From Arenicellales bacterium (lineage in GTDB: Bacteria > Pseudomonadota > Gammaproteobacteria > Arenicellales > JAHEKD01): a DNA stretch of 64,000 nt. Where the stretch lies: contig OZ242007.1 of NCBI GenBank assembly GCA_965204695.1, positions 3,047,701 through 3,111,700 on the forward strand, read 5' to 3'. The notes under the pieces are model-generated. The model saw only the letters and a program-made list of their open reading frames with translations, made no database searches and had not been told where the DNA came from. Shown here piece by piece: positions 2,059 through 39,889 of this stretch; within the stretch, counting starts at the first letter, position 1, and each line of letters opens with the position of its first letter. Position numbers and translations under genes: made by a program.

Positions 2059-5000
2059 ATGTTCAAACTACGATATATTCTCGCCAAGCATATTCTTCAC
2101 ACTATTCTCTTTGCCCAACTATTTACAATGTATCTGGCCCAAGCAGCGCAGGGGCCTGGATTGGGAAATCTTAATTACAATCCGTCAGAATTATTTACCC
2201 AAATATCAATACCTGTTGTTGATGATACAACGGGGATTCTTCCACCTGATTATCCTAATCGAAAGCATTTTGGCGTTAATGTAATGACTATGCTTAATGG
2301 TTATATGATAGGGGTGTTTGCGCCTGATAGTGGCGGAGGACCAGGTGGATGGATAGCTTTGGATGTCTCTAATCCGAGGAATCTTAACTTGGTTAAAACA
2401 ATATATGAGCCGGATACGTTTAATAGTAATCGAACAGGTAACGGCCTAAGGACAATTGATTTCCGCGAACCTCATTCGTTTGGGTTAAGTGAAAACAGTC
2501 ATATTGCAATTCAAACAGGGCGCGGGATTGAGATATGGGACTGGTCTGATGTTAATAATCCAGTACAAGTTTCAAAGCTGGCAATACCTGGTGTAAATTT
2601 TGGTGACTATAATAATGTTTCCTGGCAGTTGTTTTGGCAAGCACCCTATCTCTACGTGGCGAGAGGAAACGCGGGTTTGACAATTGTTAATACCTCGGAT
2701 TTGACAAATCCATCGATTGTGAAAACAGTATCTACTAGTGAGCTAGGGGGATTTAATATTGGGCCAGTTTTTGTACTTGGCAATCAACTCTTTGTCTCTA
2801 GTATGGAAACCACAGCCGGTTTTTCAATCCTAAATATCAGTGATCCTACTAACCCAATACTAGAAAAAAGTATTCAGTCACTACCAGGCAATTACTACGC
2901 TTCATGCTGGGATGGAGTTTATGCATACTTTGGGGGGCGGTCTCCAACAATTCCACTACGTGCCTATGACACCACGACGAATCCAATGCAGCTTGTGAAT
3001 GGCTCAATTTCAGGGTTTAGTAATCTTTACTGCAATGGACAAGATGATAAGCTTTTTTTGGGTAATCAAGATGAAATTGTCGCGATTGACGTTTCATCAA
3101 GTCAGAACTTTTCTGTATTGGGATCGGGGTCACTAAATGCCGTATCGTCCGATGTAGATCATGGGCAGGTTTTTCCGTTCGGGAATCTAGTTTGGGTTGG
3201 AAATGATCATGGTTCAGGGAGTGGATTAATTGCTCATCAAACATTGCCTGATACAGCCCCACCTGAAATTGTAGTAACTAATCCAGCCGCAAACGCAACC
3301 GATCAACCTGTCACGTCAAGAATCGGTATTGCATTGTCGGATAGTATTTTAATGGAATCGGTGAATAGTAGTACATTTGCCGTGATAGAGACTGCCACAA
3401 ATACTCAGATTGCTGGTAATTACAGTGTCAACTTGGGGTTTGTTAATTTTACACCCTCGGTCCCGTTAGTAGATGATGCTACTTATGAAGTCATCCTTGA
3501 TGGAATCCAGGATTTTGCAGGAAATTCTTTGCCCAACAGTAATTTCTTTTTTTCTACCGGGTCCTCAATAAACCACCAAATTGATATATCACCACGGTCT
3601 AATGCATTGACGCTCGAAACAGTAACATTTTCAGCAAATGCTGCGCCGATAAGTACTGGTGGGGTGGTTGAATATTCATGGGACTTTGGAGACGGCTCTA
3701 CTACAACACCTTTTTCCCAGTCATCTACAGCTTTGCATGCCTATTCTCAACCAGGTCACTGGAATGTCATCGTTACCGTGAGAGAAAATAATATCATCAC
3801 AACTAAATCAATTATCCAGACTGTTCATAATCCTGTTACCAGTAGTACTCCCACTACGGTAAGTACGATAGTTGCTAGTGATTCTATGGTGGTTGCAGTC
3901 AATGAAGATGCTAATACTGTCACTGCAATACAAAAGTCTGCACCCTTTTCCAAAATTTGGGAATCCGGCGTTGGGAAGCAACCCAGAAGTCTGGCGATTG
4001 CCCCCAATGGAGAAATTTGGGTTGTTAACCAGCAAAGCGATGATATTTCTATTCTTGATCCAAACGGGAATCTACTTACCAGTGTACAGCTTCCACGTGG
4101 CTCTCAGGCCTTTGGTATTGTGTTTGCTCCTGACGGATGTTGCGCCCTTGTCAGTTTGCAAGGAACCGGAGCATTATTGAAAATTGACCCGGCGAGCAGA
4201 TTGCAAACAGGCATGATTCAAGTAGGAATGTCAGCCAGAGGAATTGCCGTAGATAGTCAGTCACAAATTGCTTATGTAACGCGTTTTATCTCACCGCAAA
4301 CCCATGCTGAAGTTATCAGTGTGGATATTGCTTCGATGTTAGTAAACAATGTTATCCAGTTACAAAAAGATGTGACAACGATAGATGGCAGTGACCGCAG
4401 CCGTGGTATTCCTAATTACTTAAATTCGATTACAATTTCTCCTGATGGCCTGAAGGCATGGATAGCTTCGAACAAAGCGAATGTAGAGCGCGGAGTATTC
4501 AATGATAATAATCCGGTAAACGCATTGACGTTTGAGACAACAATTCGGGCTATAGCCTCACAGATTGATCTTGGCATGCAAGCGGAAATACCTTCCATGC
4601 AGATGGATATCGATAACCGAGCACAACCAAAGGCGATTATATTCAGTGATGTAGGCGATTATGTGTATATTGCTTTGGAGGGGCAAAATTCTATCGAAAT
4701 AAGAGATGCATATAACAACCAACGTGTCAGTGAAGTCAGCCAAACAGGCCTGGCACCTCGAGGTCTGGTCAAATCAAACAATCATCTGTTTGTTCATAAC
4801 TTTCTGAGCCGGACCATTTCGATATTTGATGTGACACAGGTTGAAGTGCCAAATGGCACAAGAGAAATAACCCAAGCTGGGTTCACTGAATTAGTAGCAA
4901 ACGAAGCACTTCACCCAAGAGTGTTGAAAGGCAAGCAAATCTTCTACAACGCCAGTGACCCTCGCATGACAAGGGATGGTTATATCTCGTGTGCCAGCTG

Positions 5001-8000
5001 TCACACTGATGGTGATACTGATAATCGGGTTTGGGACTTTACTGATCGAGGTGAAGGTTTAAGAAACACGATACAACTTTTAGGGCGAACGGGACTGGGT
5101 CATGGTAGAGTACACTGGACTGCAAACTTCGATGAAATTCAAGATTTTGAGAACGATATTAGATCGGGTTTTGGTGGTGTTGGGTTTCTGAGCGACAATC
5201 AGTTTGAGCAAACACAAGCGCCGCTTGGTAACCCCAAAGCAGGTTTAAATAATGATCTGGATAACCTGGCATTCTATGTGGGCAGTTTAAATAAATTTCC
5301 CAAAAGTCCATATCGAGAATCAAATGGTGTTTTAACGCCTGAAGCACAGCTTGGTAAAAATTTATTTTCCAGCCAAGGGTGTGATGGATGTCATTCCGGT
5401 GATTTATTTACAGATCTAACACGGCACGATGTTGGTACAATCCAGGCTTCATCAGGACAGAGTAATGGCCAATCTTTATCTGGAATTGGTATAGATACAC
5501 CAACGTTAATCGGTATCTGGCAAACGGCCCCTTATTTTCATAATGGGCAGGCACAAACATTGGATGATGTTTTATTGACGGGTACGGAACACTTCGTTTC
5601 AAATGAGGCAGATAGAAACAATTTAATCGCTTATTTAAACCAAATCGAATACGAAGGCCCAGAAATTATAGTGCCGGATCCTCCTGCAGAGTCCTCATAT
5701 GTTTATTTGAGTGATCTTGATGAAGAATCTTCAACCAACGGGTGGGGCCCCTTTGAAAAGGATCGTAGTAACGGCGAACAGGGTACGAGTGATGGTAATG
5801 TGATCTCCATCGCTGGCGAACAATTTTTGAAAGGTCTTGGCGTTCACGCCTACTCTGAGATTGCTTATCAGTTTAATGCGGGTCAATACGATCAACTTCT
5901 TGCAACGATTGGTGTTGATGATGAGACCAGCAACAGAGGATCGGTAAGGTTTCAGGTTCTGATTGATAATGTAATCAGTTATCAAAGCGTCATTATAAGT
6001 GGCGGAGAAAATGGAGTGGCTATATCAGTGGATATTCCACTAACCGCGACGGAAATAAAACTGATTGTTGATAACGCTGGAGATGGCGATGCGTACGATC
6101 ATGCTGACTGGGCTGATGCAAAACTTAGAGTACATGTTCCAGATGAACCCGTAAATACATCTCCTGTTGTATCAGCTGGAGCAGATCAAACAGTCAACTT
6201 GACTGATGCAGTCATCTTAAACGGTTCTATTACAGATGATGGCCTGCCAAATCCCCCATCAAATGTGGTGGCCAGTTGGTCGTTGGTTAGTGGCCCGGGG
6301 GGCGTATCGTTTGCAGATAGTTCTGCTCAAGTGACTTCAGCAACATTTTCAGTATCGGGGCAATACACGTTGAGATTGACCGCGACAGATACGGAACTGA
6401 CTGCCAGTGATGACATGATTGTTATGGTTCAGGGTTCAATTTCCGGCAGTGCCTGGTGTTTGAGATTGAAAGCATTGTCAGAAATTAATGCTAATCCATG
6501 GGCTTCCGTTGCAGAAATCGGACTTGTTGATCAATCGGGGCAGCTTATTGATCAATCCAGCTGGAGCATTCATTCTGTCAGTAGTGAAGAACTGGACGGC
6601 GAAAATGCTCCGGCAATATCAGCCATTGATGGTAATCCAAATTCGTTCTGGCACAGCAAGTGGTTTCAGCAGACGGCGCAGCCTCCACATATTTTGGAGA
6701 TAAATCTCGGTGACTCTCATTCACTTGCACAATTGCGTTACCTGCCCAGACAGGACGGCAATGTTAATGGAACAATAAAAGACCATCAAATTTATATCAG
6801 TCAACAATCTGATTGCAGTAATTGGCAATTGGTCGCAAGCGGTACCTGGTCTTCCGATACCAATGAAAAAATTGCTGACTTAGATACTGCATCAGGTAAC
6901 AATGAGCCGCCTGTTACAACTAATCCAGGCAACCAAACCAATCAGGAAGGTGATAATGGCATCAGTCTCGTTATTTCGGTCAGTGATCCTGATAGCGATC
7001 CATTGACTTATGATGCCGCAGGATTGCCTGAGGGCTTATCAATTAATACGTCAACAGGTGTCATTTCAGGTAATTTAGATTTTGATTCAGCTGGGGTTTA
7101 TAACGTAACAATAAGTGTTGATGATGGTAATGGTGGTGCGGATAGCGCTAATTTCACCTGGACAGTGAATAACGTTAATAGAGCGCCCGGCTTTGACACG
7201 TTAATTGGCGATCAAGCGAATGATGAAGGTGATTCGATTAATTTATCAGCCAGTGCAATGGACCCTGACACGGGTGATAGTTTAACCTACAGTGCTACAA
7301 ATTTACCGGATGGTGTATCGATTAATACAGGTACGGGTGTGATTACGGGTACCTTAAGTGCGGTTTCGGCAGGCAGCTATAACGTTGATGTGACTGTTTC
7401 AGATGATAACTCAACCGATGGTCAAAGTTTTGTGTGGACGGTTAATGATGTCAATCAGCCGCCCTCCATAACTAATCCAGGCAATCAGGTTAATCAGTTA
7501 TCTGATACGGTAAGTCTAACTGTGGTGGCGAGTGACCCTGATAGTGGTGATGTTTTGACTTTCTCAGAATCTGGACTGCCCGATGGATTGAATATAGATT
7601 CGAATACAGGCGAGATCAGCGGAATATTCGTGGCGGCCAATGTGTTTAACGTCACCATAACTGTTGATGATGGGAATGGTGGTATGGATGATGCGAGTTT
7701 CACCTGGACAGTGAATGATTCTGGTAACGTTCAAGAAACTATTTATGTTAGTTCTACATCAGGTGGTACGGTAGGTGGTGTGTCGTTTGCCGATGAAGAC
7801 ATTCTGGCGTTTGATGTCGCTGCGGAAACATGGTCAATGTATATAGATGGCTCTGATATAGGATTAAGTGATTCAGGCTCTCGCGATATGAATGCCTTCA
7901 CTATACTGGCAGATGACAGTATCGTTTTCAGTGTCGTTGGCGCAACAACATTGCCAGACGTTGGCAGCGTGGATGATTCAGACCTGATTCGATTTATTCC

Positions 8001-8502
8001 TACCTCGACTGGAACCACTGCAGCAGGCACTTTCGAGTTTTATTTTGACGGATCGGATGTTGGATTAAGTAGCAATGGCGAGGACATAGATGGCGTTAAC
8101 ATACTAGCCAATGGTAATATCTTAATCAGTACCTTGGGTGGCCACCGTGTTACGGGTGCATCAGGCTCCGACGAAGATTTACTCTTATTCACGCCAACAA
8201 CGCTTGGTGTGGATACATCGGGGACGTGGTCGGCTTATTTTGATGGGTCTGATGTTGGTTTAGGTGGTGTGAGTACTGAAGATGTTTACGCAGCTTGGGT
8301 GGATGATGTGACCGGAGATATTTACTTGAGTACTCGTGGTGCATTTTCGGTGACGGGATTAAGTGGTAATGGGTCAGATATTTTTATTTGTACGCCAACT
8401 TCTCTCGGGACGTCAACCAGCTGTAGTTACACCTTATTTTGGGATGGATCGGCATTTGGATATGGTTCAGAAATCATGGATGGGCTATTTATTCAGCGCT
8501 AA
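2059..8502 (+). CDS. Giant secreted multidomain protein (2147 aa): beta-propeller repeats, Ig/PKD domains, a di-haem peroxidase-like module, carbohydrate-binding-like modules, cadherin-like repeats and a novel C-terminal repeat
   Basis: Single uninterrupted ORF with AGGAG upstream and a hydrophobic N-terminal signal-like segment. Motifs seen: LVIVD-like (GLTIVNTSDLTNP), PKD (WDFGDGS), two CxxCH (4990-5004, 5380-5394), NPCBM-like (GWGPFEKDRSNGE), discoidin-like, three cadherin-like repeats and four DGSDxGL repeats. Confidence 0.8.
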   Translation: MFKLRYILAKHILHTILFAQLFTMYLAQAAQGPGLGNLNYNPSELFTQISIPVVDDTTGILPPDYPNRKHFGVNVMTMLNGYMIGVFAPDSGGGPGGWIALDVSNPRNLNLVKTIYEPDTFNSNRTGNGLRTIDFREPHSFGLSENSHIAIQTGRGIEIWDWSDVNNPVQVSKLAIPGVNFGDYNNVSWQLFWQAPYLYVARGNAGLTIVNTSDLTNPSIVKTVSTSELGGFNIGPVFVLGNQLFVSSMETTAGFSILNISDPTNPILEKSIQSLPGNYYASCWDGVYAYFGGRSPTIPLRAYDTTTNPMQLVNGSISGFSNLYCNGQDDKLFLGNQDEIVAIDVSSSQNFSVLGSGSLNAVSSDVDHGQVFPFGNLVWVGNDHGSGSGLIAHQTLPDTAPPEIVVTNPAANATDQPVTSRIGIALSDSILMESVNSSTFAVIETATNTQIAGNYSVNLGFVNFTPSVPLVDDATYEVILDGIQDFAGNSLPNSNFFFSTGSSINHQIDISPRSNALTLETVTFSANAAPISTGGVVEYSWDFGDGSTTTPFSQSSTALHAYSQPGHWNVIVTVRENNIITTKSIIQTVHNPVTSSTPTTVSTIVASDSMVVAVNEDANTVTAIQKSAPFSKIWESGVGKQPRSLAIAPNGEIWVVNQQSDDISILDPNGNLLTSVQLPRGSQAFGIVFAPDGCCALVSLQGTGALLKIDPASRLQTGMIQVGMSARGIAVDSQSQIAYVTRFISPQTHAEVISVDIASMLVNNVIQLQKDVTTIDGSDRSRGIPNYLNSITISPDGLKAWIASNKANVERGVFNDNNPVNALTFETTIRAIASQIDLGMQAEIPSMQMDIDNRAQPKAIIFSDVGDYVYIALEGQNSIEIRDAYNNQRVSEVSQTGLAPRGLVKSNNHLFVHNFLSRTISIFDVTQVEVPNGTREITQAGFTELVANEALHPRVLKGKQIFYNASDPRMTRDGYISCASCHTDGDTDNRVWDFTDRGEGLRNTIQLLGRTGLGHGRVHWTANFDEIQDFENDIRSGFGGVGFLSDNQFEQTQAPLGNPKAGLNNDLDNLAFYVGSLNKFPKSPYRESNGVLTPEAQLGKNLFSSQGCDGCHSGDLFTDLTRHDVGTIQASSGQSNGQSLSGIGIDTPTLIGIWQTAPYFHNGQAQTLDDVLLTGTEHFVSNEADRNNLIAYLNQIEYEGPEIIVPDPPAESSYVYLSDLDEESSTNGWGPFEKDRSNGEQGTSDGNVISIAGEQFLKGLGVHAYSEIAYQFNAGQYDQLLATIGVDDETSNRGSVRFQVLIDNVISYQSVIISGGENGVAISVDIPLTATEIKLIVDNAGDGDAYDHADWADAKLRVHVPDEPVNTSPVVSAGADQTVNLTDAVILNGSITDDGLPNPPSNVVASWSLVSGPGGVSFADSSAQVTSATFSVSGQYTLRLTATDTELTASDDMIVMVQGSISGSAWCLRLKALSEINANPWASVAEIGLVDQSGQLIDQSSWSIHSVSSEELDGENAPAISAIDGNPNSFWHSKWFQQTAQPPHILEINLGDSHSLAQLRYLPRQDGNVNGTIKDHQIYISQQSDCSNWQLVASGTWSSDTNEKIADLDTASGNNEPPVTTNPGNQTNQEGDNGISLVISVSDPDSDPLTYDAAGLPEGLSINTSTGVISGNLDFDSAGVYNVTISVDDGNGGADSANFTWTVNNVNRAPGFDTLIGDQANDEGDSINLSASAMDPDTGDSLTYSATNLPDGVSINTGTGVITGTLSAVSAGSYNVDVTVSDDNSTDGQSFVWTVNDVNQPPSITNPGNQVNQLSDTVSLTVVASDPDSGDVLTFSESGLPDGLNIDSNTGEISGIFVAANVFNVTITVDDGNGGMDDASFTWTVNDSGNVQETIYVSSTSGGTVGGVSFADEDILAFDVAAETWSMYIDGSDIGLSDSGSRDMNAFTILADDSIVFSVVGATTLPDVGSVDDSDLIRFIPTSTGTTAAGTFEFYFDGSDVGLSSNGEDIDGVNILANGNILISTLGGHRVTGASGSDEDLLLFTPTTLGVDTSGTWSAYFDGSDVGLGGVSTEDVYAAWVDDVTGDIYLSTRGAFSVTGLSGNGSDIFICTPTSLGTSTSCSYTLFWDGSAFGYGSEIMDGLFIQR
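6901..7716 (+). repeat. Three tandem ~92-codon repeats inside the giant gene, encoding cadherin/dystroglycan-type Ig-like modules
   Basis: The recurring block PxxTNPGNQxNxxxDxxSLxxxASDPDxxDxLTYSAxGLPxGLSINxxTGxISGxL...VTVxDGNGGxDxxxFTWTVND occurs three times. Confidence 0.8.
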
Positions 8503-8584: not shown

Positions 8585-8748
8585 TGGGATTTATTCTATA
8601 GCTTTATTAGGGTTATATGCAGTAAACACCCAAAATTGATATTTGTAAGTTACTGATAAGTAAAGAATTTAAAAACAAATCCTTTTCTCATAATGATGGG
8701 GTCGCTAGTTCGAATCTAGCCATAGCCACCATAAAATCAATGACTTAT
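8585..8748 (+). repeat. Direct repeat copy B (~165 bp) downstream of the giant gene; includes a tRNA-Met 3' half
   Basis: Partner of 1559-1722. The same internal hairpins are present, and the same ~20 nt follow the CCA (TAAAATCAATRACTTA). Confidence 0.85.
8687..8731 (+). pseudogene. tRNA-Met(CAU) 3' half fragment, copy B
   Basis: CTCATAATGATGGGGTCGCTAGTTCGAATCTAGCCATAGCCACCA. It differs from copy A by one base in the T-loop (TTCGAAT versus TTCGGAT). No 5' half lies upstream. Confidence 0.8.
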
Positions 8749-9249: not shown

Positions 9250-10244
9250 CTAATTTCCAATGTCGGTATTCATTTGATCAAGTGGGCTTTGGATATTCGT
9301 AAAATCAGATTTTATATGTGTATAGATCATCGTGGTTTGTAAATGGCGATGCCCAAGTAGTTGCTGAATAGTCCGGATATCTGTGCCAGAAGCTAGTAGG
9401 TGTGTCGCAAAGCTATGTCGAAGCGTGTGTATCCCTGCTTGTTTTTGTATTCCAGATTGATTTAATGCACTCTTAAATGGTTTTTGTAAGGTAGAAGGTG
9501 CTGTATGCCATCGTACCCATCGACTCGTTGTTTGCCATTGTCGAGTCACCGAGGATGGGAATACAAACTGCCAAGCCAACGATTTCGAGGCAGAGGGGTA
9601 TTTGCGATACAGTGCATTTGGCATCGGAGCATAACCTGCGCCGTTGAGTGAATCGTCTTTATGTTGAATAGCAACACTTAAAACTTGATCCTTAAGTTTC
9701 TCAACTAATTTAATCGGTAACAGAGCAACTCGATCTTTATTTCCTTTAGTCGCTCTCACCACAATGTTATTCATTTCAAAGTCAATGTCTTTGACTCTCA
9801 GCCGAATGCATTCACTAATTCTCAGTCCAGTACCGTATATCAATTCGGCCATCAGCCTAGGTGTTCCCTGCATATATGAAAGAATTTGACTGACTTCTTT
9901 GACTGAAAGCACAACAGGAATGACTTTACGTTTAACAGGACGAATGAGTTTAAGTAATCCCGATTATCAATTTCGAGTATTTCTTTATACAAGAACACTA
10001 GTGCATTGAGTGCTTGAGATTGGCTTCTTCCGGATAATCGACGTTGATTCACTAAGTAATTTAGGAATCGTTCTATATCAGCCTTATTCAGGTATTTTGG
10101 ATGGGTTTTGTTGTGAAACAGGATGTATTTTCGAATCCAATAAACGTAGGTTTTTCTGTATTAGGACTGAACTGCTTTCGGCGACAAGTTAAGCGAACTT
10201 GATCTAATAGACGAGGTTTTTGCTGTGAATTCGAATGACCCCAT
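9250..10244 (-). pseudogene. intI: Integron integrase IntI, disrupted by three frameshifts
   Basis: Tyrosine-recombinase C-terminus (HTLRHSFATHLL...GHRHLQTTMIYTH) plus the IntI-specific insertion (ALYRKYPSASKSLAWQFVFPSS). The N-terminal part TYVYWIRKYILFHNK...SQSQALNALVFLYKEIL sits in other frames. Shifts occur at homopolymers ~10217-10221, ~10151-10155 and ~9959-9961. The 995-nt span is not a multiple of 3. Confidence 0.85.
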
Positions 10245-10298
10245 AATTGTAACTCCTTGGTTAAATCTACAGATTAGCATTAAAATTTAATCTAACTC

Positions 10299-10436
10299 TG
10301 GGTCGGCATTTGCTAAAATTAAAATCTATTCATAAATGGTCTAATTCATTAATAGATAAGGGAAGATGATCAAAATCATACAACAAACCAAAATAGCATA
10401 TACGGACCGGTGGGTCGGTATAGTCTACTGTTAGTT
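10299..10436 (+). other. attI region with two TGGGTCGGYA direct repeats and the GTTAGTT crossover core
   Basis: TGGGTCGGCA lies at 10299-10308 and TGGGTCGGTA at 10411-20, the latter 10 bp before GTTAGTT (10430-10436). That core is the reverse complement of cassette 1's R'' box AACTAAC (10811-10817). Confidence 0.6.
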
Positions 10437-10444
10437 GTCTTCAT

Positions 10445-10816
10445 ATGAATAAATCTAAAGAGATAGATAAATATCTTTTTTATAGAAAATTAGACAAGAT
10501 CATCATTTTCGCAATTTCCTTTTTCGTCTTGGCTGGACTGTTTTACTGGCAATGGACAAACGATCAACGAATCAAAAGCGAATACAAAATTGGAACGATG
10601 ATTGGTTTTGATAATACGTTGAGTGCAACTGCGAACGGACTGGAAGGTGAACCAGTATTTTTGGCTGAATTGGATGACGGTAGGCGAGTTAAAATTCATA
10701 TTAGACCGGGTGCATTAATGTTGAGAGGTAAGAAGGTTGAAATTTTGGAAACCTCGAATACTCAGCTAGGAACTTCAAGTTTTGAGTTAATTAGGTATTT
10801 AGATGAAAACAACTAA
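10445..10816 (+). CDS. Cassette 1: hypothetical single-pass membrane protein (123 aa)
   Basis: The ORF fills the cassette between attI and attC1. It has one N-proximal hydrophobic helix (IIIFAISFFVLAGLFYW), and its stop codon lies inside the R'' box. Confidence 0.6.
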   Translation: MNKSKEIDKYLFYRKLDKIIIFAISFFVLAGLFYWQWTNDQRIKSEYKIGTMIGFDNTLSATANGLEGEPVFLAELDDGRRVKIHIRPGALMLRGKKVEILETSNTQLGTSSFELIRYLDENN

Positions 10817-10889
10817 CAAGCCAATGCAGCCGACCACGAAACCCGTCACTTCGTTCCGTGTTTGTGTCGGCTGAGCTCAAACGTTAGGC
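10811..10889 (+). other. attC site 1 (79 bp)
   Basis: AACTAAC-AAGCC...imperfect palindrome GCAGCCGAC/GTCGGCTG...CAAAC-GTTAGGC. It is nearly identical to the two halves of attC2. Confidence 0.85.
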
Positions 10890-10899
10890 GACACACGTA

Positions 10900-11277
10900 A
10901 TGCGTAAACAGTATCATTTTCGACCCTCGAAAAACGGATTCTATGCATGGGATGTGGATCGACTTATCACTTTGTCATCAAATCTTAAAAGACAGCGTAA
11001 ATCTCTTAACGAAATTGCAGAACTTGATGAAGACTATTGGTTTAATGGAGATAGCGAAGCATTCACATGCAGGACCATCGCTGAGCATGCTCAACTCATT
11101 GAAAAAGTAAGTTTAGAATTTCCAATAATAATGTGTTCCAAAGGCAGAATAATGGATGGGATGCATCGAGTTTTGAAAGCATTGAATAATGGTGAGCAAT
11201 ACATTGAAGCCGTTGTTTTCGAGCAAGACCCTGAGCCGGATTACTCAGATGTCATGCCAGATGACTTACCGTATTAA
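10900..11277 (+). CDS. Cassette 2: ParB/sulfiredoxin-like domain protein (125 aa)
   Basis: The ORF fills the cassette. The motif GRIMDGMHRVLKA resembles the DGxHR motif of ParB-like nuclease/NTPase domains. Confidence 0.5.
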   Translation: MRKQYHFRPSKNGFYAWDVDRLITLSSNLKRQRKSLNEIAELDEDYWFNGDSEAFTCRTIAEHAQLIEKVSLEFPIIMCSKGRIMDGMHRVLKALNNGEQYIEAVVFEQDPEPDYSDVMPDDLPY

Positions 11278-11317
11278 TATGTCGCCTAACAAGTGACTAT
11301 GGTTCCAAGTCAAGTAT

Positions 11318-12503
<1,186 letters not shown>

Positions 12504-12581
12504 GCCAATGCAGCCGACCAACAAACCCTCACTTTCGTTCGGGTTCATGTCGGCTGAGTTCAAACGTTAGCTGCCAAGATT

Positions 12582-12929
12582 ATGAAAAATACAATAAAAA
12601 ATTTTAGTGATAACTTTGTTAAAGAATGCGTTCGTGCTCGTATAACACATGAGTTGGAGAAAAAGCCTCAAAAATTGTATGAACGAATTTGCCATGATGC
12701 AGATGCCCTTTTTGAAAGCAAATATAAAAATAATTCAATTTATTTTGATGAAAATGAAAAGTGTTACATTTTTCGTGGAGGGAGCCCTGAATTAGTCAGA
12801 TTTAATGAAGCAAGCAGTTTTCTTGGACACGGAGATGGAATTTTAATAGTCAGTGAAAATGGACAAAAATTCATTGCAGAAACGGAATCTCAGCGAGGTT
12901 ATCCCAGTGAAATATTTTCTGGCAGCTAA
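12582..12929 (+). CDS. Cassette 3: hypothetical protein (115 aa)
   Basis: The ORF fills the cassette, and its stop lies in the R'' box AGCTAAC. I recognised no motif. Confidence 0.55.
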   Translation: MKNTIKNFSDNFVKECVRARITHELEKKPQKLYERICHDADALFESKYKNNSIYFDENEKCYIFRGGSPELVRFNEASSFLGHGDGILIVSENGQKFIAETESQRGYPSEIFSGS

Positions 12930-12980
12930 CAAGGTAGCCCAACCTACCGCTGACGCGTCGGTTGGCTTCAAACGTTAGAA
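12924..12980 (+). other. attC site 3 (57 bp)
   Basis: AGCTAAC-AAGGT-AGCCCAACC...GGTTGGCT-TCAAAC-GTTAGAA. The L''/L' pairing has one extrahelical base. Confidence 0.85.
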
Positions 12981-12992
12981 TTTTCTTGATAG

Positions 12993-13313
12993 ATGAAAAA
13001 ACATATGTACAATGTACATATGAAGAATCTCGAGTTTGAGTGGGATAAGTGTAAGAACAGTACGAATACTAAAAAACATGGCGTCTCGTTTGAAGAAGCA
13101 CGAACTGTTTTCTATGATGAATACGCTGTACAGTTCTTTGATCCTGATCATTCAGATGATGAAGAGCGATTTATCCTACTCGGCCTGAGTCATAAATTAA
13201 ATACCTTGGTAGTGTGTCATTGCTTTAGAGAAGCTGAAACTATCGTTCGTATCATTTCCGCTAGAAAAGCAGATATTGATGAATCCGAAACTTATTGGAG
13301 TTATAGAAAATGA
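12993..13313 (+). CDS. brnT: Cassette 4: BrnT-family ribonuclease toxin (DUF497)
   Basis: The N-terminal FEWDxxKNxxNxKKHGVSFEEAxxVFYD motif is present. It overlaps the downstream antitoxin by 4 nt. Toxin-first order matches brnTA. Confidence 0.8.
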   Translation: MKKHMYNVHMKNLEFEWDKCKNSTNTKKHGVSFEEARTVFYDEYAVQFFDPDHSDDEERFILLGLSHKLNTLVVCHCFREAETIVRIISARKADIDESETYWSYRK

Positions 13314-13525
13314 GAGATCATTATGATTTTTCAAAGATGAAGGGGAAGAAGAACCCTTACATCAAATATTTAAAGCAACCTGTCACAATGCGACTGGATA
13401 AGGATTCTATTGCGTATTTTCGATCATTATCGAAAGAGTCAGGTATCCCGTATCAAACATTAATCAATTTGTATCTAAGAGATTGTGCAGCAAATAAAAG
13501 AAAGCTTAATATGAGTTGGCAATGA
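13310..13525 (+). CDS. brnA: Cassette 4: BrnA antitoxin
   Basis: 71 aa with a YDFSKMKGKKNPY start and a C-terminal RHH/CopG-like segment. It is translationally coupled to brnT. Confidence 0.75.
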   Translation: MRDHYDFSKMKGKKNPYIKYLKQPVTMRLDKDSIAYFRSLSKESGIPYQTLINLYLRDCAANKRKLNMSWQ

Positions 13526-13528
13526 AAA

Positions 13529-13585
13529 TTCTAACAAACCAAGGCAGCGTACGCGTAACCGCGCCGCTGCTTTCAAACGTTATAC
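13529..13585 (+). other. attC site 4 (57 bp)
   Basis: TTCTAAC-AAACC-AAGGCAGCG...CGCTGCTT-TCAAAC-GTTATAC, with one extrahelical base. Confidence 0.85.
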
Positions 13586-13600
13586 GCAAAAATAATCCAA

Positions 13601-14257
13601 ATGACTGAAAACAGTAACATTAAATTTTATAAAACTATTAATAGAAAAAAATTTACTCCAAAATATGTAGCAGAAGTGGGTGTATGGCATCCAAAGACAT
13701 CAAATATATATTCGTATATTCAAGATGGAATTAAAACTATGTTGGTTGAGCCAGATCCAAAATCAATAGAGTTAATAAAATCCAAATTCAACAAACCCAA
13801 TGTAACACTTCATGAGGTTGCAATATGTGATTTTGATGGGGAGGTGGAGTTGTGCCAAAGAGAAAGCTCAACCTTTGTAAGCAACCTTAAAAGTAGCCCA
13901 GCATTAGTAAATGATAATTGTAATATTGAACAATCTGAAAAATTTGTAGCCACGGCTATAAAATTTTCAAAAATAGATAACAACAAAATTGATTTAATAT
14001 CTATTGATACCGAAGGCAGTGAGTGGTTTGTTATCAAAAATATGTTAAGCAGACCCGTTGTAATATCAATTGAAACGCATGGAGGAATGTACATTAATCC
14101 ATATATCAAAGAGATAAAACAATGGATGAAAGATAATAATTATTCTTTATTATATAAAGATAAGAGTGATTCTATTTATGTTCTAAACAATAAAATTAAA
14201 ATTACAGTTTTTGATAGAATAAACCTTGTAAAACAACAATTATTTATTCTGACCTAG
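13601..14257 (+). CDS. Cassette 5: FkbM-family methyltransferase, with its 3' end replaced by an IS terminus
   Basis: The IDTEGSEW motif is characteristic of the FkbM family. The last codons (CTG ACC TAG) come from the IS left end, which starts at 14250. Confidence 0.65.
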   Translation: MTENSNIKFYKTINRKKFTPKYVAEVGVWHPKTSNIYSYIQDGIKTMLVEPDPKSIELIKSKFNKPNVTLHEVAICDFDGEVELCQRESSTFVSNLKSSPALVNDNCNIEQSEKFVATAIKFSKIDNNKIDLISIDTEGSEWFVIKNMLSRPVVISIETHGGMYINPYIKEIKQWMKDNNYSLLYKDKSDSIYVLNNKIKITVFDRINLVKQQLFILT

Positions 14258-14324
14258 CCCCGGAAAGTTACACCAGTTGATGAGATAGGATTTGGTTTAC
14301 TATTTAGCTTAAAGGAGCCAACAT

Positions 14325-14606
14325 ATGCCTAAAGGTAAACGTGTCCCAACTGAGACCATTATCAAAACACTGCGTGAAGTAGAAATTCATCATGCACAAG
14401 GTCACACCATTGCTGAGAGCTGCCGTCAGTGCGGCATTACCGAACAAACCTACTACCGCTGGCGTAAACAGTATGGTGGTATGCAAATAAACCAGGTTCG
14501 TCAGATGAAGGATTTAGAGAAGGAAAATACACGTCTTCGCAAAGCGGTGTCTGATTTAACGTTGGATAAATTAATCCTAGAGGAAGCGTTGTCGGGAAAG
14601 TATTAA
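14325..14606 (+). CDS. IS3-family transposase OrfA (HTH)
   Basis: CGITEQTYYRWRKQYGG is an HTH followed by a leucine-zipper-like segment (LEKENTRLRKAVSDLTLDKLIL). Confidence 0.8.
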   Translation: MPKGKRVPTETIIKTLREVEIHHAQGHTIAESCRQCGITEQTYYRWRKQYGGMQINQVRQMKDLEKENTRLRKAVSDLTLDKLILEEALSGKY

Positions 14607-14915
14607 GCCCTGACCGTCGCCGGTTATGTGTTGACCATGTTCGGGACCAGTTAGCGGTTTCCGAACGACGTGCCTGTAAAGTGATCGGTCAACCCCGTTC
14701 TACCCAACGTTATGAACGAATCATCAAAGAAGATGAAGCAGCGCTCACGGCCGACATCATTCGATTGGCGAGTGAGTTTGGCCGTTATGGATATCGACGT
14801 ATTACTGCACTGCTCAAGTTATACCTGGGATGGTGTGTTAATCATAAGCGAGTTGAACGTATCTGGCGACGTGAGGGGCTGAAAGTACCGAGCAAACAAC
14901 CCAAAAGTGGTCGTC
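14603..14915 (+). pseudogene. IS3-family transposase OrfB, 5' fragment only
   Basis: The -1 frame reads SPDRRRLCVDHVRDQLAVSERRACKVIGQPRSTQRY...YGYRRITALL...RIWRREGLKV. The catalytic DDE core is absent. Confidence 0.75.
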
Positions 14916-15299
14916 TATGTATTTAGAAACTATGCAGAAGTTACTGAAAAATATATCGAGGCAATATTTGGTGGTTTAGTTGAGGTTGATGAATTAGATA
15001 AAATTGAAGATGAGACTTTTGAAATATCGGATCCTGTGGTTGTTAAAAATGTAGGCGGGAAAATTGAGAAATCGAAACTACTTACAAGCCAAAATAAACT
15101 AAAACCTATTGGCTGGAATCTTGCCACATTTTTCTCACACAACCGGATTGATAAGTCTGAAAGCAATGTAAAACAGATTATTGAGAATGATTTTGCCAAA
15201 ACAATTAACACCTCCTCCGATATGGTGGATGCTGATGCTTGGTTGTTTATCATTCATAAAGGAAAATTCGAATCCAAACTTAAGCAAAAATATTTTTGA
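14907..15299 (+). CDS. Hypothetical protein fragment; its 5' end was removed at the IS deletion junction
   Basis: The ORF begins inside IS-derived sequence. It is AT-rich and lysine-rich with no recognised motif, and is followed by a strong terminator. Confidence 0.3.
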   Translation: MVVYVFRNYAEVTEKYIEAIFGGLVEVDELDKIEDETFEISDPVVVKNVGGKIEKSKLLTSQNKLKPIGWNLATFFSHNRIDKSESNVKQIIENDFAKTINTSSDMVDADAWLFIIHKGKFESKLKQKYF

Positions 15300-15330
15300 T
15301 TTCAACTTAGATCAAGTTATAACCAAAGAC

Positions 15331-15355
15331 AAAAGGCCCGCAATGCGGGCCTTTT
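15331..15355. terminator. Bidirectional rho-independent terminator
   Basis: AAAAGGCCCGC-AAT-GCGGGCCTTTT is a perfect 11-bp stem with A/T tracts on both sides. It sits between convergent ORFs. Confidence 0.75.
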
Positions 15356-15370
15356 GTTTAAGTGGTTCGA

Positions 15371-15502
15371 TTAGCGATTTTGCTTGCGCTTGGTTTTATT
15401 CTTACGCTGATAATAATCAACAAAGATAAAACAGGCAGAAATACTGCCCAAGGCAATTAAACCACCAATATAGATCAACAGATCAGCGTTTGCGCCTATC
15501 AT
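15371..15502 (-). CDS. Small membrane protein (43 aa; below the ORF-track cutoff)
   Basis: AAGGAG lies 6 nt upstream of the ATG. The sequence is MIGANADLLIYIGGLIALGSISACFIFVDYYQRKNKTKRKQNR: one TM helix with a basic tail. It is the last gene of a minus-strand operon. Confidence 0.4.
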   Translation of the reverse strand: MIGANADLLIYIGGLIALGSISACFIFVDYYQRKNKTKRKQNR

Positions 15503-20379: not shown

Positions 20380-21510
20380 ATGTCTAGCTCATCACTTGGA
20401 ACACATTTACAAGAAGGTGTCGTTGGATTTCCGACAGCACTCGCCACCTCCATTGGATTGATTATAGCTGGAGCAGTCCTACTCACTGCAACTACTGGCT
20501 TTGGGATAGACACCATAAAAGCAGCCAATGCAGAGCTGGTCAATCAGCATACCCAACTGGAACTAAGCCATGTGCACGGTGACGGTACGCTTTCATCATC
20601 AGATGCGCAGCGATTCATCGTCACAGCCAGCAGTCTATTGTCGTCATATTACCCAAGGTATGCCGGTTATTATGAAAAAATGATTGGTTTATATACCCAC
20701 ACTTCCAGTCAATTTTCAGTTTACAACACAAATGCAATTTCCTGCGCTCCACGGGAATCGCTTTTTGTGATTGATGGTATTTTGGATAACAATACAATTC
20801 TTGCCATTAAGGAACATACAACAGATACAGAGGGTTTTACTGAACACATGTTTGCTCTTTGTCATTTGCTGGGTATTCAGTTTATGCCGAGAATTAAAGA
20901 CCTTAAAGCACAACAACTTTATCGGATAGATAAAACCAATTCTTATGGCAAACTGGATTCGCTGCTCACGAAAACAGCTCCTCTCGAACAAATAACCGAA
21001 CAGTGGGACAATATGATTCGTGTTATAGCTTCTCTAAAGAATAAATTATGTCCTGCTCATGAGGTGATTCGCAGACTATCCAAAGGTTCTCCATCAGATA
21101 AATTGTCCAAGGCATTTACGCTGCTGGGACGTGTTATTAAAACAGAATATATCCTGAGATACCTGACAGACAGTGATTTGAGAGATAAAGTACAGCGTCA
21201 ATTAAACAAGGGGGAGCACCGTCATCAACTTGCTCGCTGGATATTTTTTGCAAATCAGGGAAAATTCCAGACTGGTGATTACGAGGAAATCATGAACAAG
21301 GCAAGTTGCCTAAGCCTGGTTTCAAACGCTGTTTTATATTGGAATACAGTTAAGATCACAGAAATTATTAGCCAGCTCCGGGCGAATGGAGAGCAGATCA
21401 GTAACGAAACGTTATCTCATATTTCTTTACTGCCGCACAAACACGTCATTCCAATGGGTACTTATTTTACTGAGGAGCTTGTTTACCAGCCAGGACCAGA
21501 CGAGCTGTGA
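20380..21510 (+). pseudogene. Chimeric ORF: ~45 aa of an amino-acid-permease-like N-terminus fused to the C-terminal ~330 aa of a Tn3-family transposase
   Basis: The N-terminus GVVGFPTALATSIGLIIAGAVLL is APC-permease-like. From ~20515 it reads AELVNQH...GDGTLSSSDAQRF...HTTDTEGFTEHMFALCHLLGIQFMPRIKDL, the Tn3 TnpA DDE region. Confidence 0.75.
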
Positions 21511-21579
21511 GAAATTACGGTTTAAAGGCAATATTTGTGCTCAAACCGTAAATTTTGACACGAATGTGGCTGATACCCC
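20515..21579 (+). mobile_element. Tn3-family transposon remnant (3' third of tnpA plus a terminal IR)
   Basis: The tnpA tail is followed by the 38-bp terminal repeat. There is no resolvase, left IR or 5' two-thirds of tnpA. Confidence 0.75.
21542..21579 (-). repeat. Tn3-family 38-bp terminal inverted repeat
   Basis: Read inward it is GGGGTATCAGCCACATTCGTGTCAAAATTTACGGTTTG, with the GGGG start typical of Tn3-family IRs. It lies 32 bp after the tnpA stop. Confidence 0.7.
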
Positions 21580-21591
21580 TAGGTGAACTAT

Positions 21592-22071
21592 CTATTTAAA
21601 GAGTCGATCGTCCCACCATATCCTTCGTTCGCGTGAGACGGTTATTTTAGAAAACTCTTGGTGTTCAGTATTAATCACGATATTGTGATCCAACCGTGCA
21701 ACAACAGAGGGGACGATTAGAATGAGTGACCGATTCTGAGAATACCACTGTGAGCCAAATTCCCGTGCTTTCATTGCATTTTTCTCATACCAGCCTGGGA
21801 CAGAATCTGTTGTGATTTCTTCATAACTAACCCCAGCCGGGATTGTAATAGTTACAAAACATTGATTCGGTGGCATTTCACCGAGTCGAATCAGTTTTTC
21901 CAGTACAGCCGTTGAATAGTATTTTGATGCATAAATCACGGCTTGCATGGGTTTATTCCATCTTCCTGGATAGAACTTTGCGCCCTCGGGACTGAATATG
22001 GGATAGTGTCCTTCGCTATCACCAATGCGATAGGCCAACAGCGGCTTTTTGAGTTTTCGGTGTTGATTCAA
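21592..22071 (-). CDS. RES-domain toxin (NAD+-targeting, MbcT/ParT-like family)
   Basis: 159 aa. YRIGDSEGHYPIFSPEGAKFYPGRWN is typical of RES-domain proteins. It overlaps the antitoxin gene by 4 nt. Confidence 0.8.
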   Translation of the reverse strand: MNQHRKLKKPLLAYRIGDSEGHYPIFSPEGAKFYPGRWNKPMQAVIYASKYYSTAVLEKLIRLGEMPPNQCFVTITIPAGVSYEEITTDSVPGWYEKNAMKAREFGSQWYSQNRSLILIVPSVVARLDHNIVINTEHQEFSKITVSRERRIWWDDRLFK

Positions 22072-22544
22072 ATAGCGACGCTGGCTTGCGCTTCTTTTAA
22101 TAGCAAAATGACCGTTTCCGCACCGGCATTAGAAGAGGCCATTACTTCAAACGGGGTTTTACTATCGAGTAGGGGGTTTGGGCGCGTCATAAAACGCCGA
22201 ATTTTCGCATCGTCCCCATGAAATACCAGTGCGGCCTGATCAATAACCCGACTGAGTTCAAAAAAGCGTTCACTACTTTCACGTGATAACTTGCGGTCTT
22301 TTTTCTTGCGTGCACGACTCAATGTAGATTCTGAAACAATCTTATGTATGGCTTTGGGCTGGAATTCATTAATAAACGCCGTTAGTGATCCCACATTATT
22401 AATGGATAATCCACTTGCTATCGTTTCCGATAGATTTAAATAATCGACGGAACGAGCTTCATCAATGTCCAAGAGCATGGCTAAACGGACCGCTTCATCG
22501 CCGGGAACCTGGTTAGGTGTCATATAGTAATTTAACGCGTGCAT
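22068..22544 (-). CDS. Xre-type antitoxin with a C-terminal DUF2384 toxin-binding domain (MbcA/ParS-like)
   Basis: The C-terminus FMTRPNPLLDSKTPFEVMASSNAGAETVILLLKEAQ matches the DUF2384 signature. Its position upstream of the RES toxin fits. Confidence 0.8.
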   Translation of the reverse strand: MHALNYYMTPNQVPGDEAVRLAMLLDIDEARSVDYLNLSETIASGLSINNVGSLTAFINEFQPKAIHKIVSESTLSRARKKKDRKLSRESSERFFELSRVIDQAALVFHGDDAKIRRFMTRPNPLLDSKTPFEVMASSNAGAETVILLLKEAQASVAI

Positions 22545-27452: not shown

Positions 27453-28634
27453 ATGACTAAACGATCCGTTTTAATGTCTATTTTTGGGGCTGTCGGCATC
27501 ATCGGTCTAGCAATTGGTGTGGTGATTATCGCGATTGAACAAAAACCAGCGCCCGAAATCCAAGCACGCTCCACCAGCTTGTTAAAGGTGGACGTGCATC
27601 CCGTTTCGGTTGCGACGTATTCCCCGATCATTCAGGCCCAGGGGACCGTAACAGCGCGATATTCGGGCAATCTGGTTGCACAAGTCGAAGGGCAGGTGCT
27701 TGACGTATCGGATCAGTTGTTGTCCGGGCATGACTTCAAACAGGGCGATGTATTAGTCAAACTGGACGACACACGATATTTAAGTGCAAAGGCGAGTGCA
27801 CAAAGTGAGCTGGCCGCCCGAGAGCGCGATTTGACGGAAGAACAATTGCGGGCCCAACAAGCTCAAACGGACTGGAAACGCGCTGGTATTAAAAACCAAA
27901 AACCGTCGGCATTGACATTGCGTGAGCCGCAACTCAAAAGCGCCCAGGCTCAGGTTGCAGCGGCAAATGCAGCACTGACACTGGCCCGTCAAAATCTAAC
28001 CCATACACAGGTGAGGGCACCTTATGCCGGTTCAGTGGTTGCCCGTCAGGTCAGCCCCGGTGATTATGTACAAATCGGACAGACTCTGGCTGAAATTTAC
28101 GCAAATCACGCACTCGAAATAACCTTGCCGTTAAGTCAGGCCCAGATTAATCTGCTCGGCAATCGAAATACCATTCATCCGACCACAATTACCGTGAGTT
28201 CAATAGACGATCCTAAGCGGCAATGGACTACGCGTAGCTGGCGACTGGGGCGTACGATTGATCAGACCAACCGTTGGCAACCATTGATTGTAGAACTGGA
28301 AACCGGTCCGTCAACTGCGCCATTACCGGGTGAATTTTTACAAGCCAGCATTCAAAGTCGACAAATGAATGACTTAATTGAATTAAATCAATCATCATTA
28401 GCCCGTGATGGCCGCGTCTGGTTTGTCAATGATCAGAATGAATTAGCGTTTTTTAATGCGTCGGTGGTCTTTCGGCTTGATGATAACATTTATGTCAACC
28501 CGCCCGATCATTCTACCCAATTAAATATCGTGCGTTATCCACAAACTGATTTTCTGACTGGCACGAAAGTTGAGCCGGTGTTCGATGCTGAACTGAGCCT
28601 CACGGAACAAAATCTTAAGGGTGATACACTATGA
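27453..28634 (+). CDS. RND efflux periplasmic adaptor (membrane fusion protein)
   Basis: It has an N-terminal anchor and a coiled-coil hairpin (AQSELAARERDL...AQVAAANAALTLARQNL), then the THTQVRAPYAGSV lipoyl/barrel motif. Confidence 0.85.
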   Translation: MTKRSVLMSIFGAVGIIGLAIGVVIIAIEQKPAPEIQARSTSLLKVDVHPVSVATYSPIIQAQGTVTARYSGNLVAQVEGQVLDVSDQLLSGHDFKQGDVLVKLDDTRYLSAKASAQSELAARERDLTEEQLRAQQAQTDWKRAGIKNQKPSALTLREPQLKSAQAQVAAANAALTLARQNLTHTQVRAPYAGSVVARQVSPGDYVQIGQTLAEIYANHALEITLPLSQAQINLLGNRNTIHPTTITVSSIDDPKRQWTTRSWRLGRTIDQTNRWQPLIVELETGPSTAPLPGEFLQASIQSRQMNDLIELNQSSLARDGRVWFVNDQNELAFFNASVVFRLDDNIYVNPPDHSTQLNIVRYPQTDFLTGTKVEPVFDAELSLTEQNLKGDTL

Positions 28635-31390: not shown

Positions 31391-31398
31391 CTCTTTCC

Positions 31399-32124
31399 GT
31401 GTTGTTTTCAGGGTGTGTCGGTCGGACAGCCCTACAGGCTAATGAGAACAGCGCTCGAACATCAGCAGAGCATAACGATCCATTTGAAACCATTAATCGC
31501 TCCGTATATCGGTTTAATAGCAAAATCGATCAGTATGTGTTTAAGCCAATCGCCAAAACGTACCGAAAGATTACCCCTGATCCCGTTGAGAAGGGGGTAA
31601 GTAATTTTTTCGATAACTTGGGAGAGCCTGTCAATATGGTGAACAATGCCTTGCAAGGAAAATTAGACGATGCGGGGACCAGCGGTGGCCGCTTTATTCT
31701 CAATACCACCCTTGGGGTATTAGGAATTATCGATATGGCAGATAAGCTTGAGATACCCGACGTCGACGAGGACTTTGGTCAAACACTCGCCGTATGGGGC
31801 GTACCCAGTGGTCCATATTTAGTACTGCCGTTTTTTGGTCCACGTTATTTGCGCGGTACCAGTAGTTTTATCGTCGACAGAGCAGTGGATCCGCAAACTT
31901 ATGTTGGTGGCGATGCACGATTACCCTTAATCATTTTGGATACCGTCAATACACGGGCAGAATTCTTAGGGCAAGATGATTTTCTTGAGATGCAAATAGA
32001 TCCGTATATCTTTTTAAGAGAAAGCTATCAGCAACGACGCCAACTTGAAATTAAAGATACGGCAGCAGAACAGATTGATGATTTCGATGACGAGTTTGAA
32101 GAAGATGTGGCTGTGACACAATGA
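31399..32124 (+). CDS. mlaA: MlaA/VacJ-family lipoprotein; the 5' end is clipped at the deletion junction
   Basis: The lipobox remnant is LFSGC, followed by NDPFETINRSVYRFNSKIDQYVFKPIAKTY. Only ~4 residues precede the lipobox Cys if the GTG at 31399 is used. Confidence 0.7.
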   Translation: MLFSGCVGRTALQANENSARTSAEHNDPFETINRSVYRFNSKIDQYVFKPIAKTYRKITPDPVEKGVSNFFDNLGEPVNMVNNALQGKLDDAGTSGGRFILNTTLGVLGIIDMADKLEIPDVDEDFGQTLAVWGVPSGPYLVLPFFGPRYLRGTSSFIVDRAVDPQTYVGGDARLPLIILDTVNTRAEFLGQDDFLEMQIDPYIFLRESYQQRRQLEIKDTAAEQIDDFDDEFEEDVAVTQ

Positions 32125-39106: not shown

Positions 39107-39185
39107 GGGGCTAATTTTACCACAGATAGCCCCGAAAGCCTTATAAACAAAGGCTTTAACCAAAATCATCATGCCCATGTTAATG

Positions 39186-39557: not shown

Positions 39558-39889
39558 CTGGTGATAATCGATCGAATTGTCTTGGCATCCAGCTCACCAG
39601 TAAACTCAATCACTGTGCCGTTGCTCAGTTTTATTGTGCAACCCGGTAATGCAGGGGAAGAGTGTACGGCCGCTACCGGAATAAAATTCGGTTTGTCCGA
39701 CTGTGCCTCAGACCGATACAGTCCAAGCCTAACCAGCTTACTTTTCCATTGATACAACGTCTTTAAACGCAAACCCTGTGTCAGAGCATAATCCGCAATA
39801 CTGTCTTCACTTTTATCAGCTGCTTTAACATGGTCCAGCCATAAACGCTGCTTTGCCGTCATCGTCTTTGCCAGCATTCCAGTCTCCAA
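39539..39889 (-). CDS. tnpA: IS66 Orf1 (TnpA)
   Basis: 116 aa with the HTH-like segment SIADYALTQGLRLKTLYQWKSKL. It overlaps orf2. Confidence 0.8.
   Translation of the reverse strand: METGMLAKTMTAKQRLWLDHVKAADKSEDSIADYALTQGLRLKTLYQWKSKLVRLGLYRSEAQSDKPNFIPVAAVHSSPALPGCTIKLSNGTVIEFTGELDAKTIRSIITSCGLKR

Follow-up and report, generated by a model that had tools for sequence, protein, structure and literature searches.

The window is the whole stretch of DNA that was analysed, 64,000 nucleotides of contig OZ242007.1 of an Arenicellales bacterium; all positions are those of the window unless another locus is named. From 9250 onwards it carries an integron: a broken gene for an integron integrase (intI), an attachment site (attI), gene cassettes bounded by recombination sites (attC) and two insertion sequences (ISs), one of which splits the second attC site. 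The locus is very probably a degenerating chromosomal integron that is no longer a working gene-capture platform. The IS in attC2 is a candidate member of a lineage that homes to attC. The features are sorted by position. The function of the RNA region and of the guides of the IS is predicted.

9250..10244, minus strand: intI pseudogene (integron integrase); ATG preceded by a Shine-Dalgarno (SD) sequence at 10244-10242, stop at 9250.
10245..10436, plus strand: attI region, of inferred extent; it holds the first crossover core, GTTAGTT (10430-10436).
10431..10883, plus strand: cassette 1, 453 bp; open reading frame (ORF) 10445-10816, 123 aa, one hydrophobic segment, no family; core GTTAGTT at 10430, R'' box AACTAAC at 10811; attC1 at 10811-10889.
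10884..12566, plus strand: cassette 2, 472 bp not counting the IS; ORF 10900-11277, 125 aa, no family; core GTTAGGC at 10883, R'' box GCCTAAC at 11284; attC2 at 11284-11293 and 12505-12572, split by the IS, 78 bp when rejoined.
11294..12504, minus strand: IS110-type insertion sequence, 1211 bp with one CT core counted in.
11318-12259, minus strand: transposase of this IS, 313 aa, DEDD.
12260-12502, minus strand: putative 5' non-coding bridge/seek-RNA region of this IS.
12322-12328, in the IS non-coding region: putative donor guide ATAGTCA.
12364-12370, in the IS non-coding region: putative right-target guide TAACAAG.
12567..12974, plus strand: cassette 3, 408 bp; ORF 12582-12929, 115 aa, no family; core GTTAGCT at 12566, R'' box AGCTAAC at 12924; attC3 at 12924-12980.
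12975..13580, plus strand: cassette 4, 606 bp; brnT 12993-13313, brnA 13310-13525; core GTTAGAA at 12974, R'' box TTCTAAC at 13529; attC4 at 13529-13586.
13581..14250, plus strand: cassette 5, truncated; FkbM-family methyltransferase gene 13601-14250; attC missing.
14251..14919, plus strand: IS3-family remnant; left inverted repeat TGACCTAGCCCC, orfA 14325-14606, N-terminal third of orfB.
14920..15299, plus strand: 3' fragment of an ORFan, separate from cassette 5.
15329..15357, both strands: hairpin of a bidirectional intrinsic terminator, with a GC-rich stem of 13 bp, a loop of 3 nt and a T-run.

In the four pairs, the core at the cassette start and the R'' box of that cassette are exact reverse complements of each other, and the eight heptamers were found exactly where an earlier note on this DNA, made from the sequence alone, had placed them. 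Since GTTA and TAAC are invariant, the variable triplet is the informative part of this test; the chance of four matches in four triplets is about (1/64)^4. The earlier note had also described the cores as GTTRRRY. Their positions as cassette starts hold; the strict consensus does not, GTTAGGC being the only one of the four that fits it. A loose fit to the core consensus is normal for chromosomal arrays. Likewise, the two size classes of attC given there (79 and 57 bp) are right as an approximation and wrong as strict values: the lengths are 79 bp (attC1), 78 bp (attC2, IS removed), 57 bp (attC3) and 58 bp (attC4). The architecture common to the four sites is nnCTAAC - AAR - 4-5-nt bulge - stem ... 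stem - YTT - CAAAC - GTTAnnn, in which the bulge is located on the R''/L'' arm. The sites lie on the same strand, each 3' of an ORF, and rejoined attC2 is about 85% identical to attC1. The decamer TCAAACGTTA is found exactly four times in the window, at the four attC sites only. Folding of the bottom strands, a check that the note had proposed, gives hairpins.

A covariance model (R1) was built from the four attC sites and searched over the window with filters off. It finds these four sites alone (E = 5e-16 to 6e-12; next-best match, E = 0.85), with scores of 69.6 bits for attC1, 68.9 for attC3 and 69.6 for attC4. Applied to 62 foreign intI loci, R1 gives 10 matches at E < 1, all on the strand opposite intI and thus in the orientation expected of cassette arrays. 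RNAalifold gave no consensus for foreign attC sites aligned with MAFFT; for this reason, the independent test relied on a pair of end-anchored position-weight matrices, whose training set was 24 attC sites of other genomes, picked solely for the IS sitting in them. The attC sites of the window are its top four distinct matches on either strand (34.5, 26.1, 24.5 and 19.6 bits; runners-up, 19.3 and 17.9 bits). The maxima of shuffled windows have a mean of 20 bits and reach 28.6 bits; the score of attC1 (34.5 bits) is above all 100 shuffles. Neither the covariance nor the position-weight model has a match anywhere beyond 13586. Rfam, which does not contain the attC model of IntegronFinder, gives no match of any kind in the whole window at the gathering threshold.

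The integrase gene is divergent and broken. Its 220-aa ORF at 9250-9912 (minus strand) matches positions 102-315 of TIGR02249 ('integron integrase') at 4.5e-78. These C-terminal 220 aa match PDB 2a3v (VchIntIA, Vibrio cholerae) at 5e-42, in an alignment that spans the IntI-specific ALYRKYPSASKSLAWQFVFPS segment. The N-terminal third is split over two other frames (PRLLDQVR...TEK and TYVYWIRKYILFHNK...LEIDNRDYL), and both segments are recovered by tblastn with the IntI of loci L001 and L005. The frame changes lie near 10217-10221 (A5 run), near 10151-10155 (A5 run) and at about 9945-9960. The sole SD-preceded start codon (AAGGAG-8-ATG, 10244-10242) is in a frame other than that of PRLLDQVR; the count of three frameshifts, already given in the note, therefore stands. 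The frame-corrected IntI scores 367.5 bits with TIGR02249 (cutoff, 265); it fails the equivalog model of class 1 (IntI1), NF011946, with 279 bits against a cutoff of 435. Its nearest relative among GTDB representative genomes is only about 54-60% identical. The closest homologue (L001, positions 9950-10969 of that locus, Ca. Thiodiazotropha sp. 6PLUC1) has KKGEDLRLLDPSVHNF in place of the conserved TEKTYVxWIxRFIxFH; this intI may also be frameshifted.

The attI region is placed in the gap that separates the start of the divergent intI from cassette 1, where the core is complementary to the R'' box of that cassette. The ORFs of cassettes 1 to 3 belong to no family; the label 'ParB-like', which had been given to one cargo protein, is without support from Pfam even at E <= 5. 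The toxin-antitoxin pair and the methyltransferase of the same list are borne out. BrnT and BrnA match PF04365 BrnT_toxin (6e-26) and PF14384 BrnA_antitoxin (1.4e-8), and their adjacent genes overlap by 4 bp; brnTA is the usual sort of addiction module that stabilises arrays. The best sigma-70-like site of the locus lies at the start of this cassette (12986-13013, TTGATA-16-TACAAT, 10/12), which fits the carriage of a promoter by toxin-antitoxin cassettes themselves. As this site and the annotated ATG overlap, the true start of the brnT-cassette ORF may be a downstream Met. The FkbM-family protein of cassette 5 matches Methyltransf_21 of Pfam at 1.8e-14. Its homologues have 231-238 aa and 216 native residues are present here, so that about 15-20 codons have been lost.

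Cassette 5 is cut at 14251 by the IS3-family remnant, whose left repeat begins with TG and whose DDE domain and right end are deleted. The remnant matches HTH_Tnp_1 (4e-15) and positions 111-186 of 369 of the profile NF033516. It had been called IS407-like; the cut is confirmed, and the assignment is verified to the level of the IS3 family only. The blastn likeness to IS3 elements ends at query position 675, which is position 14919 of the window; the deletion had been claimed at about 14915. The ORFan fragment that follows (14920-15299) has no Pfam or NCBIfam family, and an exhaustive HMMER search of 1.8 billion representative proteins returned itself and one weak repetitive match only. This fragment was considered as the C-terminus of the FkbM protein and rejected, the lengths of the homologues and the ORFan search being against it. 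The palindrome beyond it has a DNA fold z of -7.4 and a stem that is perfect over 13 bp; Rfam at E <= 1 over the locus yields sub-threshold terminator-like or leader-like noise alone, at 15278-15472. The stretch 15316-15375 was also tried as a degenerate attC and rejected: it has no covariance match at E <= 10 (filters off), it is outside the top position-weight pairs and its stem is of the terminator type. The sequence GTTATAAC at 15316, formerly offered as the R'' box of cassette 5, thus belongs to an intrinsic terminator; the ORFan fragment at its side is unrelated. From the lack of an attC match past 13586, the end of the IS3 similarity and the ORFan fragment, it follows that the preserved array ends at 14250; an IS-associated deletion took what followed.

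A fusion protein of FkbM and IS identical to the one encoded here is on record from a contig of 5,047,596 bp, and the integron is therefore chromosomal. No near-identical DNA was found in 72,556 plasmids. Sedentary chromosomal integrons are recognised by more than 19 attC sites or by their presence in every genome of a species; the window has four such sites, with none downstream.

The element in attC2, where the note had reported one attC holding an IS, is of IS110 type and is present in a single copy in the window. Its transposase matches PF01548 DEDD_Tnp_IS110 (1.5e-17), PF02371 Transposase_20 (5e-15) and NF033542 'IS110 family RNA-guided transposase' (184.9 bits; cutoff, 140). The non-coding stretches are 240 nt upstream and 24 nt downstream of tnp, and the best inverted repeat is 8 bp. 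In the orientation of the IS, the junctions are ...GCATTGG-CT-[TGTATGATTG...CCATAGTCA]-CT-TGTTAGGC. When its right end is joined to its left end, a predicted promoter, TTGACT-18-TATGAT, would be formed that is present only at the circular junction.

This IS belongs to a large family, marine metagenomes being among its sources; the relatives comprise one in a Thiodiazotropha array, those of 80 metagenome loci (42-68% identity) and those of Vibrio, Photobacterium and Pseudoalteromonas replicons (loci including L037 and L063-L145). Where the left junction was mapped, the left end is TGTATG.... Among the 71 relatives with enough 3' sequence, 60 end on the right in ...CAYAGTCN; next come a 2-nt core and then NGTTA with three variable bases. 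The latter sequence is the bottom strand of the R'' box, in constant position and orientation. In 33 of 36 reconstituted insertion sites, a TAAC partner lies 40-145 nt off and a strong hairpin is closed by R'/R''; the median is -28 kcal/mol, and that of control GTTA sites is 0 (Mann-Whitney p = 8e-16). Several reconstituted sites resemble attC1 of the window or the Vibrio cholerae repeats (VCRs) of Vibrio.

The upstream non-coding regions of the relatives can be aligned, and their predicted fold is a long stem by which an internal loop is closed. With 43 relatives, RNAalifold yields 21 consensus pairs, and compensatory changes are seen in 17; the alignment covers the donor loop only in part. 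The right side of the loop, CGnTAACNAG, tracks the flank: CTTGTTA/TAACAAG, CTGGTTA/TAACCAG (5 loci), CTCGTTA/TAACGAG and TTTGTTA/TAACAAA. In the last three pairs, a natural reprogramming of the putative guide is visible. The left side matches the left flank of the same element (mean exact run 5.48, against 3.56 +/- 0.17 in 2000 permutations), and the donor segment CGrAYAGTCN tracks five right-end variants of its own element. Half-matched insertions, to which that of the window copy probably belongs, occur too. In L096, the locus of one metagenomic relative, the right-end sequence GGGGTTGACACCATAGTCA is tandemly repeated about three times ahead of a CTTGTTA junction (~1910-1975 of that locus).

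On these comparisons of sequence, targeting of attC by the IS family through its predicted RNA is well supported; this putative attC-specific, RNA-guided character of the IS had been missed in the earlier note. It is proposed more tentatively, at slightly less than even confidence, that the IS in attC2 belongs to a widespread, undescribed IS110-type bridge-RNA lineage whose target guide would be fixed on the R'' flank of attC (TAAC-AAG). No description of attC homing by IS110-type elements was found in searches of the literature and of an ISfinder subset; novelty, which draws on these searches only, is plausible and not established.

The surroundings of the integron are as follows. Directly upstream lies an intact ORF of 2147 aa (2059-8502) for a secreted-looking repeat protein. 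At about 8690-8735, GGGGTCGCTAGTTCGAATCTAGCCATAGCCACCA resembles the T-arm and the acceptor 3' strand of a tRNA with CCA; ARAGORN calls no tRNA or tmRNA in the window. This fragment may be the attachment-site remnant of an island carrying the integron. At 20380-22544, a truncated Tn3-family transposase (C-terminal 376 aa) adjoins a pair of RES toxin and Xre-MbcA-ParS antitoxin. At 28631-31600 lies a pseudogene of an AcrB-type RND transporter with an in-frame stop at about 29558 and a 3' deletion; its match to the Pfam profile, which has 1021 positions, breaks off at position 910, at the start of a VacJ-like ORF. This gene is broken by the stop and the deletion, with no homopolymer shift. An IS4-type transposase (DDE_Tnp_1_3) at 33714-34622 and an apparently complete IS66 unit (tnpA-like ORF, TnpB_IS66, DDE_Tnp_IS66) at 37487-39889 mark a stretch of high IS density.

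The reading as a decaying chromosomal integron, at which the earlier note had also arrived, accords with the broken intI, the attC2 split by an IS, the truncated last cassette and the exact boundaries. Some points weigh against it. The frameshifts are read from one assembly, and two of the three are at A5 runs, a classic spot for sequencing errors. No convincing cassette promoter (Pc) is found between intI and attI, the stretch 10150-10430 having no plus-strand sigma-70 match of at least 9/12. The attC models used are either derived from the sites of the window or limited to sequence; in the weak sequence-only model, the 19.6 bits of attC3 are about the mean of the shuffled-window maxima and are not significant alone. 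Another intI that is intact and acts in trans, or further parts of the array, may lie outside the 64-kb window. If the frame changes were errors of assembly or sequencing and only the IS insertions were real, the integron would be functional. The position of two shifts at homopolymers would suit this, as would the stop-free frame segments and the legible catalytic motifs. This is improbable: intI has three frame changes in 991 bp and 15 long neighbouring ORFs, the adjoining 6.4-kb ORF included, have none in 26.9 kb (p = 4e-5 per base); the same 26.9 kb hold 110 homopolymer runs of at least 5 bases, none shifted (Fisher p = 9e-4). The third shift is off any homopolymer, and other genes of the window have decayed by nonsense mutation and deletion. 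Real decay of intI is more likely than sequencing error, because the neighbouring homopolymers are unshifted and the RND gene is broken by a stop and a deletion. That the repeats are generic palindromes of the repetitive extragenic palindromic (REP) kind or terminators, instead of attC sites, can be virtually discounted. Imperfect palindromes 3' of ORFs would be expected of such repeats too, but the sites adjoin a divergent integron-integrase gene, within each cassette the variable triplets are complementary, the sites share one strand with none elsewhere in the 64 kb, and they resemble the attC sites of other integrons.

The origin of the integron and the arrival of the IS leave room for two further alternatives. 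A small integron that came on a genomic island and is eroding with it, in place of an ancestral sedentary one, is unlikely and still deserves weight. It would account for the small array (five cassettes only, two length classes of attC), for a GC content of 0.34-0.40 against 0.424 in the window, for the 3' tRNA-like fragment at ~8690-8735, although no tRNA gene is called, for the dense downstream debris (Tn3 tnpA fragment, RES-Xre pair, IS4-type, IS66) and for a nearest IntI merely 54-60% identical. No genes for transposition or conjugation are attached to the integron, the window holds no second island boundary and the class 1 equivalog model is failed (279 bits; cutoff, 435). An island origin is moreover compatible with a degenerating chromosomal integron and does not exclude it. 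The IS in attC2 could also have inserted by chance, with no specificity for attC. What counts here, and also against the attC-homing lineage, is that the left guide of the window copy, GTTGCTGGAAT (within 12300-12502, minus strand), mismatches its left flank GCATTGGCT (12503-12518). In most relatives the two match, and the insertion in attC2 may accordingly have been half-matched or off-target. Against the attC-homing lineage, too, the covariation of target and guide is broken by one relative (L102), and that of donor and guide by another (L063). A single copy in the window would also suit chance. This explanation is nevertheless very improbable, as 60 of 71 relatives (42-68% identity) sit in the same position and orientation beside NGTTA and three variable bases, the relatives include those of Vibrio and Pseudoalteromonas replicons and of a Thiodiazotropha array, and the guides covary with the flanks.

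The kind of integron is already known, decaying chromosomal integrons being well documented. [quoted passage not shown] It differs from them in its new IntI sequence and its short array. According to Cury et al. (2016, PMC4889954), intI pseudogenes adjoin 15 of 279 CALIN elements, and roughly one complete integron in four has ISs. In a survey of Shewanella, IS110-family elements are reported in arrays and none is said to interrupt an attC.

Two other kinds of mobile elements home to attC. The IS1111-attC group is said to consist of ISPst6, ISKpn4, ISPa21 and ISPa25, the names of Tetu & Holmes (2008) and Post & Hall (2009) being associated with it. Its literature already describes IS-driven loss of the integrase and of attI, and seekRNA has been shown for it (PMC11187229). 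The window IS resembles this group as an IS with a DEDD transposase that inserts site-specifically, in a single orientation, at one attC end, in a putative RNA-guided choice of target, and in the expected immobilisation of cassettes and degradation of the array. It was compared with the group as a possible member and rejected: its transposase has a BLASTP E of 0.35 and 17% identity with that of ISKpn4 and 313 aa against 330-350 aa, its long non-coding region is upstream (the seekRNA of ISKpn4, ISPst6 and ISPa25 is downstream of tnp) and the subterminal inverted repeats of 11-13 bp are absent. These differences point to a separate lineage that would have converged on attC. Group IIC-attC introns (PMC3001079) also home to attC, in the orientation opposite to the cassettes; unlike the window IS, they consist of a ribozyme and a reverse transcriptase and have no DEDD recombinase. 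The homing of the IS lineage would be the third independent invention, after these two.

The nearest comparable curated IS is ISEc32 (IS110-type, 37% identity). With IS621 (PMC11208160) and ISEc21 (PMC11187229), the window IS has in common the DEDD and Transposase_20 domains, a 5' non-coding region with a predicted stem by which an internal loop is closed, a putative left guide of the same sense as its target, a putative right guide complementary to the target and followed by a donor loop, a CT core and a predicted promoter formed only on the circular junction. Its target sets it apart from them: it is the structured recombination site of another mobile system, in place of a REP or other linear sequence of the chromosome.

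The following history is proposed. A divergent integron integrase would have recombined folded attC sites with attI and built a stack of at least five promoterless cassettes, each starting with TTRRRY from its own circular attC (a footprint visible in the sequence). Three later lesions are visible in the sequence. In the first, intI gained three frame changes, of which two fall in A5 runs; recent inactivation is inferred because the segments are free of stops and the catalytic motifs are legible. In the second, the IS110-type element entered the CT of ...GCATTGG-CT-TGTTAGGC on the bottom strand of attC2. It parts the R'' box from the rest of the attC2 hairpin, so that cassettes 2 and 3 would be unresolvable there. 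In the third, an IS3-family element inserted into the 3' end of the FkbM gene, and an adjacent deletion then took away the DDE half of the element, the end of cassette 5, its attC and what lay beyond. By analogy with IS621 and ISEc21, the 5' non-coding region of the IS110-type element would encode a bridge/seek RNA. Its internal loop TAACAAG would be the guide complementary to the core and right target CTTGTTA, the conserved R'' flank of attC, and the next loop, ATAGTCA, identical to the right end of the IS itself, would be the donor guide. As the left guide does not fit attC2, the insertion in the window was probably guided by the right half only.

By itself, the integron is one more well-documented end state, with a pseudogene for intI, cassettes damaged by ISs and a toxin-antitoxin cassette still in place, and its value lies mainly in a clean, base-resolved annotation. 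If the IS lineage is new, it would provide RNA-guided IS110 recombinases whose natural programming is directed at another mobile system's folded recombination site, and dozens of natural guide/target pairs for bridge RNAs with structured or half-matching targets. It would also be a frequent and overlooked cause of immobilised cassettes in marine integrons, the arrays of Vibrio among them.

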